A stretch of DNA of 64,000 nucleotides from an uncultured Bacteroidales bacterium (GTDB taxonomy: Bacteria > Bacteroidota > Bacteroidia > Bacteroidales > JAAYJT01), in contig CAZJZG010000005.1 of assembly GCA_964550455.1 (NCBI GenBank), positions 15,008-79,007 on the forward strand. The letters are read 5' to 3'. The notes below the pieces were generated by a model, which searched no databases, was not told where the DNA came from, and worked only from the letters and a program-made list of their open reading frames with translations. The position numbers and the translations under genes are program-made. Shown in pieces: positions 11,039 through 57,838 of the stretch (its first letter is position 1; each line of letters opens with the position of its first letter).

Positions 11039-11418
11039 ATCTGTTATTTATCTGTGATATAAACAGTCGGCTTTTAAAACCATATAAACCTAAATAAAAT
11101 TAATAACTTTGTCCCATTGAATGACAATAAGGTAGAGCATCGGATAATTCATGGGATTTTGTGATTGATCTTACGGTCTTTAAAATCAAATCTTTATGAG
11201 ATTCTTGCTTGAGTTTACTTTTAAGGGAAATGGATTTTTGTCATGTGAAGTCTGTGGCACAGGTTTTGATGGTAATTATTTATAAAAACAATAAAATCTG
11301 CTATGACTGCGTTTTATGCAACTGTATTATTGCCGGATTTAAAATCTCTTTAATGAATTAGCTTTATAATTTTTTAAATTAAACTCACATATTCTAATCA
11401 CTAAACTTTTATTTTATT

Positions 11419-40165: not shown

Positions 40166-40243
40166 TAAAAAAGGCGACTTGCGCCGCCTTGAATGTCTTC
40201 ACAACGGAAAAAATCCTTATTGTGAATTGCTTTAAATTGTGCT
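40166..40243 (-). ncRNA. tracrRNA: predicted tracrRNA (about 75 nt)
   Basis: The minus strand reads ACAAUUUAAAGCAAUUCACAA UAAGGAUUUUUUCCGUU GUGAAGACAUUCAA GGCGGCGCAAGUCGCC UUUUUU. The first 21 nt are complementary to nt 2-23 of the CRISPR repeat in GUUGUG orientation (14 bp + 1-nt bulge + 7 bp). A nexus-like AAGG..CCGUU, a small hairpin UGAA-GACA-UUCA, and a GNRA-capped terminator hairpin with U6 (40167-40188) follow. Confidence 0.8.
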
Positions 40244-40244
40244 G

Positions 40245-40252
40245 CAAATATA
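40245..40252 (-). promoter_or_regulatory. -7 promoter box TATATTTG for the tracrRNA
   Basis: Perfect TAnnTTTG (extended TATATTTGCA, as upstream of rplS) ending 4-5 nt before the first anti-repeat nucleotide. A TTTG lies 23 nt upstream, longer than the usual spacing. Confidence 0.6.
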
Positions 40253-40279: not shown

Positions 40280-43200
40280 ATGATAAAAAAAATTTTAGGA
40301 CTTGATCTTGGTACCAGTTCTATTGGCTGGGCTTTAATAGCTGAAAACAATGATACAGTGGATATTATTGGAATAGGAACCAGAATTATACCATTGAGTA
40401 CAGATGAAAAGGATGAGTTCTCAGCAGGGAACCAGATTTCAAAAAATCAAAAAAGAACTGCTAAACGAACACAGAGGAAAGGATACGATCGCTATCAGTT
40501 ACGAAGAAAGGCACTTGTGTCATTACTTAAATCACTTGATGTTTTACCGGAAGAAGATCTGATGAAACTTGATGCTTTGGAATTATGGAAAATAAGGGCT
40601 AACGCAGTAAACCAAAAAATAGAACTAAAGGAATTTGCAAGAGTTTTGCTTCATTTAAACCAGAAACGTGGATACAAGAGCAGTAGAAGTGATGCAAATC
40701 TTGGAAAGAAAGATACTGAATATGTTGCCGAAGTTAAAGGAAGACACCAATTAATTAAAGAGCAGGGTATTACTATAGGGCAGAAATTTTATTCTGAATT
40801 GATGAACAATAGCAATTACAGGATAAAACAGCAGGTGTTTCCAAGAGAGGCATATATTGAAGAATTTGATTTGATATGTGAAGAACAAAAAAAGCACTAT
40901 CCTGAAATAATAACTGATGAACTTGTTGAAAAACTCAAAAATAAAATTATTTATTATCAGCGTAAATTGAAATCCCAGAAGGGATTAATCAGTATTTGTG
41001 AGTTTGAAGGATTCTTTAAAACTAATAAAAAAGGCAAAGACGTATTTGTAGGACCAAGAGTTGCACCACGTAGTTCTCCGTTGTTTCAGGTTTGTAAAAT
41101 ATGGGAAACAATTAATATTCTGACATTGAAAAACAGAAGGGGAGAAAAATACGAGTTTACCTCTGATGATAAGCAGAAAATATTTGAATATCTTGACAAC
41201 AATGAGAAACTCACTGCTACTGAGCTATACAAAATTATAGGAATTAATAAAAACGATGGTTGGTATCATAACAAACAAATTGAAAGAGGTATTCAGGGTA
41301 ACTTGACTAAAGTTGAAATTCTGAAAGTTCTAAATACTAACAATGAGCATTTGAATTTTGAATTAAGAGTTGATGAAACAGATGAGGAAGCCTTTCTGAT
41401 TGATAAGAATACCGGAGAGATAAAAGAACAAAAGAGTAGAAAAACCATATGTTCAGATATAGAAAAACAGCCGCTTTACCAACTGTGGCATGTAATTTAT
41501 TCTATAAGCGATACAGATGAATGTGAAAATGCTTTGATTAAAAAATTTGGATTTGACTCCGAAACAGCGAAGCGCTTAACTGATATTGATTTCAGAAAAG
41601 GAGGTTTCGGAAACAAATCAAGCAAAGCAATGAGAAAAATACTTCCCTATCTTATTGAGGGCTACATGTATAGCGATGCATGTTCCTTTGCTGGTTATAA
41701 TCATTCCGGTAGCTTGACAACTGACGAGAATTTAAAAAGAGTTTTAATTGATAAGCTGGCTTTACTTCCTAAAAATAGTTTGCGTCAGCCGGTTGTTGAG
41801 AAAATCCTTAATCAAATGATAAATCTTGTTAATGCTATAATTGAAAAATATGGTAAGCCTGATGAGATAAGAATAGAACTTGCACGAGAATTAAAGCAGA
41901 GCAAGGAAGAGCGTAACGATACTTTTAAATTCATGAACAAACGGGAAAAAGAAAATGAAATAATAAGAAAAAGACTAACTGAAGAATATAATGTAAGGGC
42001 TACCAGGAATAATGTAATAAAATTCAGATTGTTTGAGGAAATTGAAAATGAAGATAGCAAAATAAACGCTATGTGTATTTACTGCGGTAAGCATTTTGGA
42101 ATAACTGATGCACTTTCTGGAGATAATGTAGATGTTGAACATATTATTCCAAAATCGTTGCTATTTGATGATTCCCAAAGCAATAAAACACTTTCTCACC
42201 GCCATTGCAATGAGGCAAAGGGCAACCGGACTGCCTATGATTATATGTCGTCAAAAGGAAAAGAAGAGTTTGACGAGTATCTACACCGGGTTGAAATGTT
42301 ATATAAAAACCGGATAATTGGGAAAACTAAACGTGATAAACTCCTGATGCCGCAAAATAAAATCCCTTTGGATTTTATTGAAAGACAGTTACGTGAAACA
42401 CAATATATTTCCAAAAAGGCAAGAGAGATACTTATGCAGGTTTGCCGCAATGTTTGGAGTACCAGTGGTAGTGTTACTGAATATCTGAGAACAATATGGG
42501 GGTGGAATGACGTATTGCATAATTTGCAATTCTCTTTACACAAAGAACATGGATTAACTGAAATAGTTGATTGGGAAAGTAACGGACAATTGCACACACG
42601 TGAAGTAATAAAAGGATGGAATAAACGCGAGGATCACAGACATCATGCCATTGATGCACTTGTAATTGCATGTACAAAGCAAGGATTTATACAGCGTATA
42701 AATAATCTTAGCAGTAAAGGAAATAGAGAAGAAATGTATGAACTGATTAGAGATATGCCTTTTGAATTAAGAGAAAACCTAAGCTTGCTTGAGAAATATC
42801 TGATAATGCAAAGACCATTCACTACAGCAGAGGTTGAAAATAAAGCTGCTGAAATCCTTATTTCGTTTAAACCTGGAAAGAAAGTTGCAACTACCGGCAA
42901 ACGAATAATTAAGAAAAATGGTAGAAAAAAAGTTGTGCAAACTGGTATTATAGTGCCCCGTGGTTCTTTAAGTGAGGAAAGTGTTTATGGCAGAATAAAA
43001 GCATTAAGTACTGATTTTAAGAGTGGTATGCTTGAAAAACATCCTGCAAAATTTTTGTTTAATAATCCTCATCTGATTTTTAAACCTTATATTAAAAATC
43101 TGGTTGAAGCACGCCTGGCTGAATATAATGATGATGTGAAAAAGGCACTTGCTTCATTAAAAAAGAAACCAATATTTCTTGATAAAGATAATAGCGTTGA

Positions 43201-43984
43201 GCTTACATATGCAACATGCTTTTCTGATGAATATGTTTTAAAATATCCGATTGAAAGTATTAAACCTGGAGACGTAAAATATATTGTTGATAAACAAGTT
43301 CAAAAACTTGTTAAGCAACGACTTGACCAATATGATGGTAAATCAAAAGAAGCATTTAAAGAGCCGTTGTGGTTTAATGAAGAAAAGCAAATTGCAATAA
43401 AAACTGTAAGATGTTTTACAGGTTTAAGCTCCACTGAACCAATTAAATATGATGAAGCAGGAAATCCCATAGGTTTTGTTCTACCCGGAAATAACCATCA
43501 TGTAGCGTTTTATATTAATAGTGAGGGAAAAATTGAAGAACATATATGCACTTTTTGGCATGCCGTTGATCGTAAGCGTTTTGGCTTACCTGTAATTATA
43601 AAAGATCCCAAAGTTGTTTGGGATAAAATTATTACTGATAATATTGAATTACCTGCTTCATTCATTGAAAAATTGCCTGCGGACGGATGGATCTTTATGG
43701 AAAGCATGCAGCAGAATGAAATGTTTGTGTTGGGATTGGATAAGGACATTGTAACAGAGGCTCTTAGACTAAATGATAAAAAAACTATTTGTAACAACTT
43801 ATACAGGATTCAGAAGCTTGCTAAGAGTAATTACATGTTTAGGCATCATTTGGAAACTTCTGTTAACGATTCAGAAGATAAAAAAATAACTAAGAAATAT
43901 ATAAATATTCAAAGTAAAGGGGCTTACATATCAAATAATCCCATAAAAATCACTATTGATTATTTAGGCGATATGTACCTGTAA
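40280..43984 (+). CDS. cas9: CRISPR-associated endonuclease Cas9, type II-C
   Basis: 1234 aa. Motifs: RuvC-I MIKKILGLDLGTSSIGWALI (Asp9); Arg-rich bridge helix KRTAKRTQRKGYDRYQLRRKAL; RuvC-II DEIRIELARELK. The HNH motif is DVEHIIPKS...NKTLSHRHCNEAKGNRTAYDY (His621, codon 42140-42142). RuvC-III is HRHHAIDALVIA (His788/His789/Asp792). Only cas1 and cas2 follow (no csn2, no cas4). Confidence 0.97.
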   Translation: MIKKILGLDLGTSSIGWALIAENNDTVDIIGIGTRIIPLSTDEKDEFSAGNQISKNQKRTAKRTQRKGYDRYQLRRKALVSLLKSLDVLPEEDLMKLDALELWKIRANAVNQKIELKEFARVLLHLNQKRGYKSSRSDANLGKKDTEYVAEVKGRHQLIKEQGITIGQKFYSELMNNSNYRIKQQVFPREAYIEEFDLICEEQKKHYPEIITDELVEKLKNKIIYYQRKLKSQKGLISICEFEGFFKTNKKGKDVFVGPRVAPRSSPLFQVCKIWETINILTLKNRRGEKYEFTSDDKQKIFEYLDNNEKLTATELYKIIGINKNDGWYHNKQIERGIQGNLTKVEILKVLNTNNEHLNFELRVDETDEEAFLIDKNTGEIKEQKSRKTICSDIEKQPLYQLWHVIYSISDTDECENALIKKFGFDSETAKRLTDIDFRKGGFGNKSSKAMRKILPYLIEGYMYSDACSFAGYNHSGSLTTDENLKRVLIDKLALLPKNSLRQPVVEKILNQMINLVNAIIEKYGKPDEIRIELARELKQSKEERNDTFKFMNKREKENEIIRKRLTEEYNVRATRNNVIKFRLFEEIENEDSKINAMCIYCGKHFGITDALSGDNVDVEHIIPKSLLFDDSQSNKTLSHRHCNEAKGNRTAYDYMSSKGKEEFDEYLHRVEMLYKNRIIGKTKRDKLLMPQNKIPLDFIERQLRETQYISKKAREILMQVCRNVWSTSGSVTEYLRTIWGWNDVLHNLQFSLHKEHGLTEIVDWESNGQLHTREVIKGWNKREDHRHHAIDALVIACTKQGFIQRINNLSSKGNREEMYELIRDMPFELRENLSLLEKYLIMQRPFTTAEVENKAAEILISFKPGKKVATTGKRIIKKNGRKKVVQTGIIVPRGSLSEESVYGRIKALSTDFKSGMLEKHPAKFLFNNPHLIFKPYIKNLVEARLAEYNDDVKKALASLKKKPIFLDKDNSVELTYATCFSDEYVLKYPIESIKPGDVKYIVDKQVQKLVKQRLDQYDGKSKEAFKEPLWFNEEKQIAIKTVRCFTGLSSTEPIKYDEAGNPIGFVLPGNNHHVAFYINSEGKIEEHICTFWHAVDRKRFGLPVIIKDPKVVWDKIITDNIELPASFIEKLPADGWIFMESMQQNEMFVLGLDKDIVTEALRLNDKKTICNNLYRIQKLAKSNYMFRHHLETSVNDSEDKKITKKYINIQSKGAYISNNPIKITIDYLGDMYL

Positions 43985-44019
43985 ATGTTGAGCAACTTGA
44001 TTTTTATTTGATATTAGCT

Positions 44020-44922
44020 ATGATAAAAAGAACACTTTATTTTGGAAATCCCTGCACCCTTAAGAAAAAGGACATGCAAATGTATGTTGATTTTTCAGAA
44101 AAAGAAAATAAAACACCTGCCGTCATTCCCATAGAAGATATTGGTATTGTGGTACTTGATAGTAATCAGATAGTTATCTCACACGCTTTGATTTCAGCTT
44201 TGATGGATAATAATTGTGCGCTCATTAGTTGTAATGATAAGCATTTGCCATATGGCTTAATGCTTCCAATGTTTTCTCATCATGCTTTTACACAGAAAAT
44301 GCATAATCAAATTAACTCCTCTTTGCCTTTGCGTAAAAATCTGTGGAAGCAGACTGTGATAGCTAAAATTTCAAATCAGGCTGCATTATTAAGAAAAAAC
44401 GGTAAAAACGATAATAAAATGCAATACTATATCAGGCAGGTAAAAAGCGGTGATCCTGAAAATATTGAAGGACGGGCAGCAGCTTATTACTGGGATAATC
44501 TGTTCAATCATTATTTCTCTTTTTACAGAAGCATTGAAGGTGGTTATCCAAATTCTTTCCTTAACTATGGATATGCTGTTTTACTTGCTGTTATTGCAAG
44601 ATCAATTGTTGCAAGCGGTATGATACCATCATTCGGCATACATCACCGCAATAAATACAACCCATGGTGTCTGGCGTCTGATATCATGGAACCATACCGT
44701 CCGTTTGTGGATAAAGTAATTCTCAATATCATGGAAGAGTTTCCTGACAAGGAAGAGCTTACACCTGAAATAAAAAGGCATATTCTTCAGATTCCTGCAA
44801 TGGATATTGTTATTGACCGAAATAACAGCCCTTTGATGATAGGTACACAGCGTACTACTGCATCTTTGGCTGATTGTTTTGAAGGAACTGCACGCCGCAT
44901 ATTATACCCTGAATTAACGTGA
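44020..44922 (+). CDS. cas1: CRISPR-associated endonuclease Cas1 (type II)
   Basis: The ORF track opens at TTG 44008. The ATG at 44020 gives MIKRTLYFGNPCTL, the usual type II Cas1 N-terminus. IEGRAAAYYW, NSFLNYGYAVL and GIHHRNKYNPWCLASDIMEPYRP are present. Confidence 0.95.
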   Translation: MIKRTLYFGNPCTLKKKDMQMYVDFSEKENKTPAVIPIEDIGIVVLDSNQIVISHALISALMDNNCALISCNDKHLPYGLMLPMFSHHAFTQKMHNQINSSLPLRKNLWKQTVIAKISNQAALLRKNGKNDNKMQYYIRQVKSGDPENIEGRAAAYYWDNLFNHYFSFYRSIEGGYPNSFLNYGYAVLLAVIARSIVASGMIPSFGIHHRNKYNPWCLASDIMEPYRPFVDKVILNIMEEFPDKEELTPEIKRHILQIPAMDIVIDRNNSPLMIGTQRTTASLADCFEGTARRILYPELT

Positions 44923-45266
44923 GTACAAAATATTTGAGCCGCTTAAATCAGTATAGAGTTTTGTGGGTTTTTGTGTTTTTTGATTTGCCAACTGCTACTA
45001 AGAAAGACAGGAAGAATTATGCGCAGTTCAGAAAAAATCTTCTGAAAAACGGATTTGCAATGCTTCAATATTCAATTTATATCAGGCATTGTAGTAGTCG
45101 TGAAAATGCCGATGTTCATATAAAACGTGTTAAATCTTTTTTAGCTCCGAAAGGAGAAATCATTATTTTTACATTAACTGATAAACAGTTTGGAATGATG
45201 GAATTTTTTCGTAGCAGTGAAATTTCATCCAGACCCAAAACTCCTCAGCAACTTGAATTGTTTTAA
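44919..45266 (+). CDS. cas2: CRISPR-associated endoribonuclease Cas2
   Basis: 115 aa. The GTG start overlaps the cas1 stop (GTGA at 44919-44922). YRVLWVFVFFDLPT ... FRKNLLKNGFAMLQYSIYIRHC fits the Cas2 ferredoxin-like pattern with the conserved Asp. Confidence 0.9.
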   Translation: MSTKYLSRLNQYRVLWVFVFFDLPTATKKDRKNYAQFRKNLLKNGFAMLQYSIYIRHCSSRENADVHIKRVKSFLAPKGEIIIFTLTDKQFGMMEFFRSSEISSRPKTPQQLELF

Positions 45267-45276
45267 TACAGGAAAT

Positions 45277-45314
45277 GAAAAAACCCTTTATAAATTATTC
45301 ATAAAGGGTTTTTT
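45277..45314. terminator. bidirectional rho-independent terminator between cas2 and the array
   Basis: GAAAAAA CCCTTTAT aaattattc ATAAAGGG TTTTTT: an 8-bp stem flanked by an A-tract and a T-tract, so it can terminate transcripts from either side. Confidence 0.75.
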
Positions 45315-45396
45315 CAAGTGATTTTTCTTTTCAGTCAGACTTCGCAATCATTTGAAATACAGCTCGTTAAGCCGTGTTATGATGTGCGAATCCGGT

Positions 45397-45404
45397 CAAA
45401 GATA
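45397..45404 (-). promoter_or_regulatory. repeat-internal -7 promoter box TATCTTTG (example in repeat 1; present in repeats 1-25)
   Basis: Nt 23-30 of the repeat in crRNA sense match the Bacteroidetes -7 consensus TAnnTTTG perfectly. A partial -33-like TTG sits at repeat nt 2-4. Function as a promoter is inferred, not shown. Confidence 0.45.
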
Positions 45405-47281
45405 CAATTTAAAAGCAATTCACAACTTATAATATCTTTGATCGTTACTGATGTAGGATGTGCGAATCCGGTCAAAGATACAATTTAAAAGCAATTCACA
45501 ACGGATGATGAAGATGAGATACAAGAAGAAATGATGTGCGAATCCGGTCAAAGATACAATTTAAAAGCAATTCACAACTAAATTTTTTGAGCTAAGTTTA
45601 AGCTGTCAGATGTGCGAATCCGGTCAAAGATACAATTTAAAAGCAATTCACAACTAGTTTTATTGATTAGCCTTTCAGGATGTAGATGTGCGAATCCGGT
45701 CAAAGATACAATTTAAAAGCAATTCACAACTACACGCTGGTTGAATCTTGTCCTGAATCAGATGTGCGAATCCGGTCAAAGATACAATTTAAAAGCAATT
45801 CACAACGATTACAAGATGTTCTGGCAATTACTTGGAGATGTGCGAATCCGGTCAAAGATACAATTTAAAAGCAATTCACAACATACTTCGGCAGCGCATG
45901 TTCCGGAAATTCGATGTGCGAATCCGGTCAAAGATACAATTTAAAAGCAATTCACAACATATGTTCCGGTTTCCTGTGCCTTGAAATAGATGTGCGAATC
46001 CGGTCAAAGATACAATTTAAAAGCAATTCACAACTGAACAGCACCCGATGCTTTGCGACCTACAGATGTGCGAATCCGGTCAAAGATACAATTTAAAAGC
46101 AATTCACAACGATTCCCTTATCAGCACCTTGTTTTAATTTGATGTGCGAATCCGGTCAAAGATACAATTTAAAAGCAATTCACAACGACGGTGCCGCTCC
46201 ATCGGCGTATGCGGCAGGATGTGCGAATCCGGTCAAAGATACAATTTAAAAGCAATTCACAACCTGCACGCTTCAGCACTACCTGCTCATCATGATGTGC
46301 GAATCCGGTCAAAGATACAATTTAAAAGCAATTCACAACGTATGTTTGATAATACCGAATACCTGTTTTGATGTGCGAATCCGGTCAAAGATACAATTTA
46401 AAAGCAATTCACAACGAAAAGCACTTATGACACCGCCGGCATAATGATGTGCGAATCCGGTCAAAGATACAATTTAAAAGCAATTCACAACTATCGAAGC
46501 ACAGGACAAGGAGTGTCTTAAGATGTGCGAATCCGGTCAAAGATACAATTTAAAAGCAATTCACAACAATCTCGTTTCAATTTTGAAACTTGCTGCAGAT
46601 GTGCGAATCCGGTCAAAGATACAATTTAAAAGCAATTCACAACAGGTTTTGAGTTTTAGCGTTTACGTATTTTGATGTGCGAATCCGGTCAAAGATACAA
46701 TTTAAAAGCAATTCACAACCCTTGCGCATCGCCTCTCAGTCGTACATCCGATGTGCGAATCCGGTCAAAGATACAATTTAAAAGCAATTCACAACACGCA
46801 ACCAGATGTTTATGACTCTTAACAGGATGTGCGAATCCGGTCAAAGATACAATTTAAAAGCAATTCACAACTTGGGGGTATTCACAGTATCAATGTTATG
46901 AGATGTGCGAATCCGGTCAAAGATACAATTTAAAAGCAATTCACAACGTATGTTTGATAATACCGAATACCTGTTTTGATGTGCGAATCCGGTCAAAGAT
47001 ACAATTTAAAAGCAATTCACAACCTTTGATAAGTTTTTAAAGCCAAGCCTTCCGATGTGCGAATCCGGTCAAAGATACAATTTAAAAGCAATTCACAACT
47101 TCTGTATCTAGTTTTGCAACTTTTTTCAAGATGTGCGAATCCGGTCAAAGATACAATTTAAAAGCAATTCACAACTTCTGTATCTAGTTTTGCAACTTTT
47201 TTCAAGATGTGCGAATCCGGTCAAAGATACAATTTAAAAGCAATTCACAACAGCCATATTCTTTTCCTCCTTTTTTTATTC

Positions 47282-47327
47282 GATGTGCGAATCCGGTCAA
47301 AGAGTCAATTTAAAAGCAATTCACAAC
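47282..47327 (-). repeat. degenerate terminal CRISPR repeat (cas-distal end)
   Basis: It differs from the consensus at 47304-47305 (+ strand AGAGTCAATT versus AGATACAATT). In crRNA sense TGTATCTTTG becomes TGACTCTTTG. Confidence 0.95.
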
Positions 47328-47361
47328 TGAGAAAGAACTGACAAAACTGAAGTTTTACAAT

Positions 47362-48201
47362 TTACTTTAACTGCCTGTGTAGTCTGTGTTTTTGATGGAA
47401 ATATTTAAGGAGCCAAATAGCAAGGTACAGAACTACAAAAACAAAGATGATGATGGCGCCAGAGGGCAGATCTGCTACATATGAAATGTAAAGCCCTGTT
47501 ATACTGCCCAGTATCCCGAAAATAACGGAATAAATGATAATGTGTTTGAAATTTCGGGTTAGCAGGTTGGCAGCCGATTGTGGTATTGTAAGGTATGAGA
47601 TCACAAGGATAATGCCTATAACCCTGATATTCAGTACTATGACTAAAGCCACGAGAGCAATTAATATGTAATTGAAGGTGTTTACCGGTAGTTTATGGCT
47701 TTGGGCGTATTCTTCATCGAACGAGATAAACAGAATGATGCGGTAGAACAAAATAAAGAACAGTATGAGTAATGAGCAAAGAATTATCATGAAATTAATA
47801 TCGGCATCGCTTACGGTAAGAATATTCCCGAAAAGGTAGGTCATAAGATTGGGAGCATATCCGGGGGTAAGGAAAATAAAAATGATACCCAGTGCCATCC
47901 CAAACGACCATATTATTCCAATGGCAGAATCTTCGCGGATTTCAGTCTTTTTTGAGATGAACTCAATACCCAGTGCCGATAGCAGTCCGAAAGCAGCACC
48001 TCCAAGCATTGGATTTATACCAAAAAAATACCCCATTCCAATCCCGCCAAAAGATGCATGAGTGATACCTCCGGCAATGAACACTTTGCGTCGTGCAACT
48101 ATATAAGTTCCGGCAATACCACATGATATACTTGCCAGTAAGGCAGCCAGCAAGGCTTTGCTGAAAAATGAATAGCTGATGAGTTCAAAAAGTTCAGCCA
48201 T
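47362..48201 (-). CDS. znuB: metal (Zn/Mn) ABC transporter permease
   Basis: ORF 47362..48282. The ATG at 48201 (MAELFELISYSFF) lies 1 nt after the upstream ATPase stop. It is polytopic, ZnuB/TroC-like, with GGITHASFGGIGMGYF. Confidence 0.8.
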   Translation of the reverse strand: MAELFELISYSFFSKALLAALLASISCGIAGTYIVARRKVFIAGGITHASFGGIGMGYFFGINPMLGGAAFGLLSALGIEFISKKTEIREDSAIGIIWSFGMALGIIFIFLTPGYAPNLMTYLFGNILTVSDADINFMIILCSLLILFFILFYRIILFISFDEEYAQSHKLPVNTFNYILIALVALVIVLNIRVIGIILVISYLTIPQSAANLLTRNFKHIIIYSVIFGILGSITGLYISYVADLPSGAIIIFVFVVLYLAIWLLKYFHQKHRLHRQLK

Positions 48202-48202
48202 A

Positions 48203-48958
48203 TTAGTGATTGTGTTTTTTAAGTACAGTATGAGGAATATCGCCGTGAGTAATAATCTGGATCGGGCAGCCGTAAGCAGCAAGCTGTTTCTCAGTGATAA
48301 TGTTTGACGGATGGTAATTCAAATATTTATTTACGCAGGCTATGGTTTTTACATAATATGAAATAGTGCCTATATCGTGGGTAACAACAATGATAGCCAT
48401 GGTTTTGTTAAGCTCCAGCAGAATATCATAAAGATCGGCTTCAAATTTACTGTCAACAAAAGTATTAGGTTCATCCAGAATAAGCAGGGAAGGGGATGTA
48501 ATGATAGCACGGCAGAGAAAAACCCTCTGCATCTGCCCGCCCGACAGTTCTCCGATCGGCCTTGAGTAAAGATTGCTGATGCCCATCCTGGTAAGCAGCT
48601 CAACGGCTTTATCCTTATCAGCCTGTGTATATCTCTTAAAAACAGCTTTATCAGAAACCAGCCCTGAAAGCACAACATCAATCACAGAAATCGGAAAACG
48701 CTTGTCGAAACGGCTTATCTGAGGTAAATATCCTATTTGGTTCTTTGTATCCCTGCCATTTGCCTTGTGCTTTATTATCTGACCTTTAACAGGTTTGAGC
48801 AAACCAACCATCAGCTTTACAAGAGTGGTTTTTCCTCCTCCATTCGGACCAATTATTCCAATAAAGTCATTTGAATTTATGGTGAGATTCACATCCTTAA
48901 GAACGATCTCTTCACCATAAGTAGCCGAAATGTCAATCAATTCAATGATTTTACCCAT
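48203..48958 (-). CDS. znuC: metal ABC transporter ATP-binding protein
   Basis: The ATG at 48958 gives MGKIIELIDISATYG. It has Walker A GPNGGGKTT, the ABC signature LSGGQMQRV and Walker B LLILDEP. Confidence 0.85.
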   Translation of the reverse strand: MGKIIELIDISATYGEEIVLKDVNLTINSNDFIGIIGPNGGGKTTLVKLMVGLLKPVKGQIIKHKANGRDTKNQIGYLPQISRFDKRFPISVIDVVLSGLVSDKAVFKRYTQADKDKAVELLTRMGISNLYSRPIGELSGGQMQRVFLCRAIITSPSLLILDEPNTFVDSKFEADLYDILLELNKTMAIIVVTHDIGTISYYVKTIACVNKYLNYHPSNIITEKQLAAYGCPIQIITHGDIPHTVLKKHNH

Positions 48959-49081
48959 AAAGATACCATATTTCTTTAAATGCAAAAGTAATTCTTTATT
49001 CCGTGTTCTGAAAGAAAATACAATTACCTGATCGTAATTTTTGCGGTATCAATGCTAAAGTCAGCTTTATAATCATCGTTT

Positions 49082-49981
49082 CTACGGGTTCAGTGCTTTC
49101 TGCATGGTATGAGAAATGGCATACATACCTGCAAGCCAGTCTTCTTCAAGAGGGTTGAGGATCTCGATTTTTCCGGATATTTCAGCAGCCACAACTTCAG
49201 CCGAAGCAGTATTGAACTGACTTTGAACTAATATGGTGTGAATATTCAGCTTTCGGGCAACATCAATTATATTTTTAATATGCGAACCGGTAGGCTCTTT
49301 GCCGTCTGATTCCAGTGCAATTTGCTCAAGTCCGTAGGTTCTTGCAAAATATGTAAAAGCCGGATGATATATCAGAAATGTTTTGATCGGGGAATGAGCA
49401 AGCAGCCCTTTAATATGATTGTCAAGTTTATCAATATCCTTTGTGAAATCTTCATAATTAGCCATATACATTTCCTTGTTGTCCGGGTCAAATTCCAGAA
49501 GTGTTTTCAGAATGGTATTGATTTGTATTCTTACTTCTGCCGGCGATAGCCAGTGGTGAGGGTCAATTCCGTGAAGGTGAACATGGTCGCCGTGATCAAT
49601 TACTTCCCCTACAATAAGGTCAATATCTTTACTCAGATCAACCGTCAGTGTTTCGGATCTTTTCTCTGATTTGTCAATAATATGATCTTCAAATATCAGA
49701 TTACCATTTACAAAGAAAATAACTGAATTGCTCAGATCCTTTATTTGTTTTGGAGTTGGTTCGTAAGTTTCGGGGCTTACTCCCGGAGGTGTAATGACCT
49801 GTATTTCAAAATTATCTCCTGCAATACGCTCAGCAAAATATTTATAGGGTAGTATACTTACTGATATTACCGGCTTTTCTTTAACAGAAACAGGAACACA
49901 GGCTACGGCTATTGCTGCCACTAATCCAAAGCTCAGGATTTTCTTTAATGAATTTCGGAAACTCTGTAATACTGATAGCAT
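49082..49981 (-). CDS. znuA: metal ABC transporter substrate-binding lipoprotein (ZnuA/TroA family)
   Basis: 299 aa with lipobox AVAC. It has the His-rich loop DHGDHVHLHGIDPHHW and FIYHPAFTYFA-like motifs of cluster A-I binding proteins. Confidence 0.8.
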   Translation of the reverse strand: MLSVLQSFRNSLKKILSFGLVAAIAVACVPVSVKEKPVISVSILPYKYFAERIAGDNFEIQVITPPGVSPETYEPTPKQIKDLSNSVIFFVNGNLIFEDHIIDKSEKRSETLTVDLSKDIDLIVGEVIDHGDHVHLHGIDPHHWLSPAEVRIQINTILKTLLEFDPDNKEMYMANYEDFTKDIDKLDNHIKGLLAHSPIKTFLIYHPAFTYFARTYGLEQIALESDGKEPTGSHIKNIIDVARKLNIHTILVQSQFNTASAEVVAAEISGKIEILNPLEEDWLAGMYAISHTMQKALNP

Positions 49982-57805: not shown

Positions 57806-57838
57806 TTTGTTTTTGAAAAGAAAATAGGCGTATATTTG
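57806..57838 (+). promoter_or_regulatory. Bacteroidetes-type promoter of rplS (-33 TTTG, -7 TATATTTG)
   Basis: TTTG at 57806-57809 and TATATTTG at 57831-57838 are 21 nt apart, about 40 nt upstream of the rplS ATG. Confidence 0.65.

Follow-up and report, generated by a model that had tools for sequence, protein, structure and literature searches.

Organization of the CRISPR-Cas locus

The window, i.e. the whole 64-kb stretch of DNA that was analysed and to which all coordinates refer, contains three cas genes, a CRISPR array lying directly after them, and a tracrRNA gene upstream of cas9. These features are as follows:

40167-40252, minus strand: tracrRNA gene, comprising a promoter box, the anti-repeat and then a terminator hairpin
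40245-40252, minus strand: tracrRNA promoter box TATATTTG
40220-40240, minus strand: anti-repeat, seen on the plus strand as a sequence that resembles repeat nt 2-23 apart from a one-base bulge
40280-43984, plus strand: cas9 (1234 aa), in which HNH and RuvC_III domains were found
44008-44922, plus strand: cas1
44919-45266, plus strand: cas2, with the array directly after it
45381-47327, minus strand (crRNA sense): type II-C CRISPR array with 26 repeats of 46 nt and 25 spacers

The operon consists of cas9, cas1 and cas2 alone. Both csn2 and cas4 are absent from it, and the locus was therefore classified as type II-C. A comparison with the Rfam families gave no match anywhere in the 64-kb window. 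All but one of the repeats (25/26) are identical and read GTTGTGAATTGCTTTTAAATTGTATCTTTGACCGGATTCGCACATC in the minus-strand sense. The spacers are 30 nt long in 24 cases and 31 nt long in one. Two spacers are duplicated: one pair is dispersed in the array (46948-46977 and 46340-46369), and the members of the other are arranged in tandem (47176-47205 and 47100-47129).

The plus strand at 40220-40240 reads like the repeat, and therefore the tracrRNA, together with the crRNAs that pair with it, is encoded on the minus strand. An earlier note on this DNA had also placed the crRNAs on the minus strand, running towards cas2. This orientation agrees with that of the anti-repeat, with the arrangement in related loci, and with metatranscriptomes that show the 47-nt array of Bacteroides fragilis to be read in the direction of the cas genes (PMC4911918). 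The related loci were drawn from a sample of 80 loci with related Cas9 in named genomes across Bacteroidota; arrays were found in 49 of them and, as in the window, 46 of these 49 are antisense to cas9. Standard predictors are reported to misjudge the direction of arrays in Bacteroidota (PMC4911918).

A candidate promoter box inside the repeats

Each of the 25 intact repeats contains, in the crRNA sense, a sequence that conforms to TAnnTTTG, the -7 element of promoters recognized by the Bacteroidota primary sigma factor (sigma-ABfr). The box, TATCTTTG, occupies repeat nt 23-30 on the minus strand in 25/26 repeats and recurs along the array:

47222-47229 (first copy) to 45397-45404 (last copy), minus strand: 25 box copies about 76 nt apart, identified by a motif scan and by conservation in relatives

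That every intact repeat carries a perfect TAnnTTTG had been claimed in the earlier note, and the motif scan recovered the minus-strand box in 25/25 of them. The partial -33-like TTG mentioned there is likewise present, at repeat nt 2-4, that is 18 nt upstream of the box. In sigma-ABfr promoters the -33 element, TTTG or TTG, is expected about 19 nt upstream of the -7 element; at a distance of 18-19 nt, TTG is only weakly enriched (about twofold) in the promoters of this genome. The box begins halfway along the repeat, and the last 5-6 nt of the repeat mirror its first nucleotides and are probably the integrase site. A sigma-70 promoter scan was dropped as irrelevant to this phylum; it yielded fewer hits than were obtained in shuffled sequences.

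TAnnTTTG boxes in the host genome

The use of this motif was examined upstream of ∼2000 long ORFs of the 2.96-Mb assembly. Within 21-40 nt before start codons there were 270 boxes on the sense strand, compared to ∼20 per bin inside genes. On the antisense strand, no peak of boxes was observed before the start codons of the same ∼2000 ORFs. This distribution clearly points to the use of TAnnTTTG as a promoter element in this genome. The individual boxes that the earlier note had listed at 57831, 52960, 22841 and 40245-40252 were all found, and they precede the genes for L19, L31 and a DUF4783 protein and the tracrRNA, respectively.

A context model was built from 514 boxes located close to start codons. 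It prefers an A/T tract at positions -9 to -4 and CA after the final G of the box. In the repeat the A/T tract is present, and the two positions after the G (+1/+2) read AC, where CA is preferred. The resulting context score of the repeat box, 0.87, corresponds to the 20th percentile of likely promoters and to the 91st percentile of boxes in coding regions. Judged by its context, the repeat box looks like a usable but not a strong promoter, which would suit an element that occurs in 25 copies.

The tracrRNA gene and the extent of pairing

The anti-repeat matches the repeat at 21 of 22 nt with one bulge, and it pairs with repeat nt 2-23 only. In related loci, the anti-repeats match the repeat from nt 2 to nt ∼23-27 and no further. 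Of 31 loci, 22 have a perfect TAnnTTTG upstream of the anti-repeat on the strand of the tracrRNA, at a distance of 0-8 nt and mostly of 3-4 nt. Pairing ends at repeat nt ∼23-27 because the box from which the tracrRNA itself is transcribed is situated 2-6 nt ahead of the anti-repeat, so that the start of the tracrRNA coincides with the end of pairing. Since it stops there, this pairing fails to account for the repeat box. The boxes of the tracrRNA genes also show that TAnnTTTG is the type of promoter in use at these loci, and they provide a yardstick for the distance between box and transcription start.

Conservation of the box in related arrays

By chance, TAnnTTTG is expected in ∼3% of composition-matched 46-nt sequences. 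The 25 copies in the array represent one evolutionary event, and therefore a test against chance has to be comparative. Among the 41 distinct 46/47-nt repeats of the related arrays, that of the window included, TAnnTTTG is present in 23 in the crRNA sense and in none (0/41) in the antisense direction. When the non-terminal part of the repeats was shuffled (2000 trials), the mean number of box-bearing repeats was 1.4 and the maximum was 6. Within the 3' part of the related repeats, TAnnTTTG is the commonest gapped motif of its shape.

The distance between the G of the box and the spacer is 16 nt in 16 repeats, with a few repeats at 7, 11, 14 or 17 nt. The ten bases that follow the box are nearly unconserved among related repeats, and the two free positions within it vary (TC, CC, CT, AC, TT). 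A comparison of four arrays from the same genus revealed variable columns at 0 of 8 positions of the box, 11 of 16 positions of the tail and 3 of 22 positions of the 5' part that pairs with the tracrRNA. Given 11 variable columns among the 24 of box and tail, the absence of any from the box has a hypergeometric probability of p ∼0.002. Cultured relatives with a 46/47-nt repeat that bears the box include Bacteroides fragilis 638R, Prevotella intermedia and Alkaliflexus imshenetskii. On the evidence of these comparisons, the box is conserved across Bacteroidota orders while its flanks diverge, which contradicts a chance match.

The remaining 18 of the 41 repeats are without a perfect box. Many of these read GTTCTTTG or GATCTTTG, which reduces the core common to the repeats to TCTTTG, and this core could have a different function. 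The imperfect promoters of tracrRNA genes take the forms TAnnTTCG, TAnnTTTA and TTnnTTTG, and the same variants occur in several of the apparently box-less repeats, e.g. TATCTTCG in Chryseobacterium and TATCTTTA in two Bacteroidales. Since these variants are common to tracrRNA promoters and such repeats, the figure of 23/41 is probably an underestimate. TAnnTTCG was seen at the tracrRNA promoter position in two loci (L059 and L063) and in the array repeats of Chryseobacterium (L043, L049 and L051), and this sequence may represent a form of the -7 box that is tolerated. A search for external promoters within 300 nt of the arrays of the box-less relatives found none, and this comparison was uninformative.

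Many related arrays open, at the cas-distal end, with a sharply truncated repeat, of which only the 3' 20-39 nt are kept (L010, L014, L016, L020, L024, L025, L043, L049, L058-L060, L072, L074 and L078). The idea that outer repeats keep their 3' half, with the box in it, through selection for a promoter was considered and rejected: the figure of 20 of 32 arrays with a partial repeat and the range of lengths kept (8-39 nt) are as would be obtained with random breakpoints at the old end of the array (61% expected).

The ends of the array

At the cas-distal end, the array borders on an operon of co-directional genes, and at its other end on the flank of cas2. The relevant features are:

47282-47327, minus strand: cas-distal first ('extra') repeat, full length, with the box altered to ACTCTTTG
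47328-47361, minus strand: 34-nt interval from the stop codon of znuB to the first repeat, with neither box nor terminator
47362-48282, minus strand: ABC-3 permease gene, znuB-like (PF00950), the last gene of the co-directional operon
48203-48985, minus strand: ABC ATPase gene, co-directional with the crRNAs
49082-49981, minus strand: znuA, co-directional with the crRNAs
45267-45380, minus strand: cas2-proximal flank, a putative acquisition leader, ∼85% conserved in one close relative
45276-45316: strong bidirectional terminator hairpin (z = -6.1)

The cas-distal repeat differs from the others by the change TA>AC at nt 23-24 (47304-47305). It is the sole degenerate repeat of the array, and its two adjacent changes strike the TA of the box, with the tracrRNA-pairing part left intact. 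In most related arrays it is the 5' part of the outer repeat that has been lost instead.

The short gap before znuB had been described as devoid of a promoter box and as containing only a weak hairpin. This was confirmed for 47328-47361: the box is absent, and the AU hairpin is weak and not significant. The conclusion drawn from it, that there is no room for a classical leader promoter, proved to be a weak argument, as the acquisition leader of II-C systems sits on the cas2 side (PMC8092290, PMC12080349). Because the II-C leader is located transcription-downstream, next to cas2, its lack beside znuB is expected. The operon of znuA, the ABC ATPase and the permease (47362-49981) is a possible source of read-through transcription into the array.

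In type II-C systems, new spacers join the array at its transcription-downstream end; in the present array the degenerate repeat is at the opposite, cas-distal end. Spacer polarity was sought by comparison with close relatives (Cas9 94% identical), but contig ends interrupt some of their arrays, and the others are collapsed to one repeat in the assemblies. Those with the same flanking genes have just one repeat, and the sequence in front of znuB is a different flank of 370 nt (L081/L082, repeat at 11090-11135; L098, repeat at 2010-2055). Such single-repeat arrays represent either assembly collapse or a genuinely empty array.

A second CRISPR system in the same genome

Another contig of the assembly carries a type I-B system (C27:29358-48853) with Cas6, Cas7, Cas5, Cas3-like, Cas4 and Cas1 proteins and ∼150 repeats of 30 nt. 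The type I-B repeat, used as a single control from the same genome, has no TAnnTTTG box on either strand. Four of the 25 II-C spacers (47024-47053, 46796-46825, 46264-46293 and 45503-45532) overlap spacers of the type I-B array, with exact runs of 20, 17, 16 and 15 nt, compared to 0.4 pairs with runs of 12 or more for shuffled spacers. These overlaps indicate that the two CRISPR types sampled overlapping sites of the same targets. Hot spots common to both systems, or a coupling of acquisition between them, could be the source.

Proposed mechanism of crRNA expression

We infer promoter activity, a start site and a route of processing from the sequence features of the repeat, from how well they are conserved and how strictly they keep to one strand and position, and from the use that the genome itself makes of the box. 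It is fairly likely that the promoters embedded in the repeats are functional. Each repeat would then be a small promoter of the Bacteroidota primary-sigma type, composed of (i) TTG at nt 2-4, (ii) an 18-nt spacer, and (iii) TATCTTTG at nt 23-30. The repeat as a whole would be built of three modules, with nt 1-23 serving in tracrRNA pairing, nt 23-30 as the promoter box and the last 5-6 nt as the probable integrase site.

The start of transcription is predicted at about repeat nt 34-36, because in Bacteroides the centre of the box is at -7 (PMC7366714) and the distance from box to anti-repeat at tracrRNA genes is 3-4 nt. A primary transcript unit would thus comprise an 11-13-nt repeat tag, a 30-nt spacer and the next repeat. 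One such start is given as an example:

46608-46610, minus strand: predicted start at repeat nt 34-36 of the repeat 46598-46643, leaving an 11-13-nt 5' tag

The transcripts of all units would extend in the direction of cas2 as far as the bidirectional terminator (45276-45316). By analogy with type II systems elsewhere, their 3' ends would be set by the tracrRNA together with RNase III, for which the genome has a gene, and trimming would remove the 5' tag. The TA>AC change in the first repeat would silence the oldest unit, and the oldest spacer would then be expressed only via znuABC read-through. An extraneous crRNA from the znuB-proximal flank would likewise depend on read-through from the zinc-uptake operon.

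A broader version of this model can be put forward only tentatively. It holds that the long, 46-48-nt repeats of Bacteroidota are needed to accommodate a full promoter of the phylum type (TTG, about 18-19 nt, TAnnTTTG and a start region) that extends past the tracrRNA-pairing module, that the units are autonomous and yield crRNAs with an 11-13-nt tag, and that the oldest unit has been switched off by TA>AC.

The array could also be expressed as one long pre-crRNA, through znuABC read-through or from an unrecognised upstream promoter, with the box playing a role at the DNA level, e.g. as an anchor for the Cas1-Cas2 integrase. We regard this as unlikely, though it is the main rival. Read-through is favoured by the co-directional znuA, ABC ATPase and znuB genes and by the lack of a terminator in the 34-nt gap, but the closest ORF upstream of the array is directed away from it in 13 of 32 related cases, and few of the flanks contain a box. 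A different function in DNA would fit the retention of the TCTTTG core in relatives lacking the TA, and an integrase anchor would fit the position of the box, which begins at the repeat midpoint. However, an anchor that acts as a ruler is difficult to reconcile with the shifts of the box within the repeat in some lineages (tails of 7, 11, 14 and 17 nt), and the motif is strictly strand-specific and equals the promoter consensus of the host.

It is improbable that the box acts in RNA, where it would direct processing or bind a protein from a position in the pre-crRNA on the 3' side of the tracrRNA duplex. The box does lie immediately 3' of the duplex, but the repeat alone has no significant RNA structure (z = -0.75), and an RNA signal would have no reason to match a DNA promoter consensus on one strand only. 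Cleavage within the crRNA-tracrRNA duplex is established for type II systems, and such cleavage would remove this segment from the mature crRNA. It is hardly credible that the box is a chance match spread by repeat duplication. The frequency expected for a single 46-nt sequence, as given above, and the origin of the 25 copies in a single event would be compatible with this, but the conservation of the box across orders of Bacteroidota with diverged flanks, and its occurrence in 23 repeats in the sense and in none in the antisense direction, speak strongly against it.

Comparison with known type II-C systems

The proposed repeat-embedded promoters have precedents. crRNA promoters located within the repeats are known from Neisseria meningitidis (Zhang et al. 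2013) and Campylobacter jejuni (Dugar et al. 2013), as cited in PMC12080349 and PMC8092290. According to these two sources, promoters in the repeats drive transcription of II-C arrays in the direction of the leader, and recent work treats repeat promoters as a general property of type II-C systems (PMC12080349). The parallel with Neisseria and Campylobacter that had been drawn for the present array is supported at the level of sequence, with a different promoter type. It is less new than was implied, since II-C repeat promoters have been generalised and have been proposed for Flavobacterium as well.

Like the systems of Neisseria and Campylobacter, the present locus has a minimal cas9-cas1-cas2 operon, and its array would be transcribed in the direction of the cas genes and a putative acquisition leader. 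A host primary-sigma element is found, in the crRNA sense, in every intact repeat, and the oldest ('extra') repeat is degenerate. The differences concern the type of promoter (predicted Bacteroidota -33/-7 here and extended -10 there), the location of the box (16 nt before the spacer here and at the 3' end of the repeat there) and the length of the repeat (46-47 nt in this clade and 36 nt there). In Neisseria, transcripts from repeat promoters start inside the spacer, whereas here the start is predicted within the repeat, so that the crRNA would carry a repeat-derived 5' tag.

Within the same phylum, a repeat promoter was proposed for Flavobacterium columnare and F. psychrophilum from TTG alone (as the -33 element), in 36-nt repeats and with very few reads (PMC8092290, PMC10309648). 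In an F. psychrophilum array split by an IS, both halves are transcribed (PMC10309648). The present array resembles these II-C arrays in its predicted transcription towards the putative leader and in having at the repeat start the TTG that is invoked as a -33 element. It differs by the -7 TAnnTTTG repeat box, which is not mentioned in these papers (PMC8092290, PMC10309648). For the 47-nt repeats of Riemerella, no promoter was reported with a predictor trained on sigma-70 (PMC5006608). A Prevotella intermedia repeat printed in PMC5608340 carries TATCTTTG in the crRNA sense, followed by a 16-nt tail. In the literature on TAnnTTTG in connection with CRISPR and on start sites of Flavobacteriia arrays, we found no report of a -7 box in the repeats. 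We therefore rate the feature as a phylum-specific variant of the known II-C repeat-promoter mechanism.

Repeats of up to 48 nt were noted, without explanation, in the Bacteroidetes subcluster of Cas9 proteins (Chylinski et al. 2013, PMC3737331). The locus analysed here is similar to that subcluster with respect to its Cas9, which belongs to the same clade, its 46-nt repeat and its divergent tracrRNA gene upstream of cas9.

Implications

If confirmed, repeat-embedded promoters of this type would explain the 46-48-nt repeats of the Bacteroidota Cas9 systems, a question that has been open since 2013. They would also show an adaptation of II-C repeats to the way in which the host phylum transcribes its genes. 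In practical terms, the box may be of use in determining the orientation of arrays and calling PAMs in Bacteroidota, in forecasting which spacers are expressed, and in the engineering of native arrays in gut Bacteroidales. The general picture of type II-C biology would remain unchanged.
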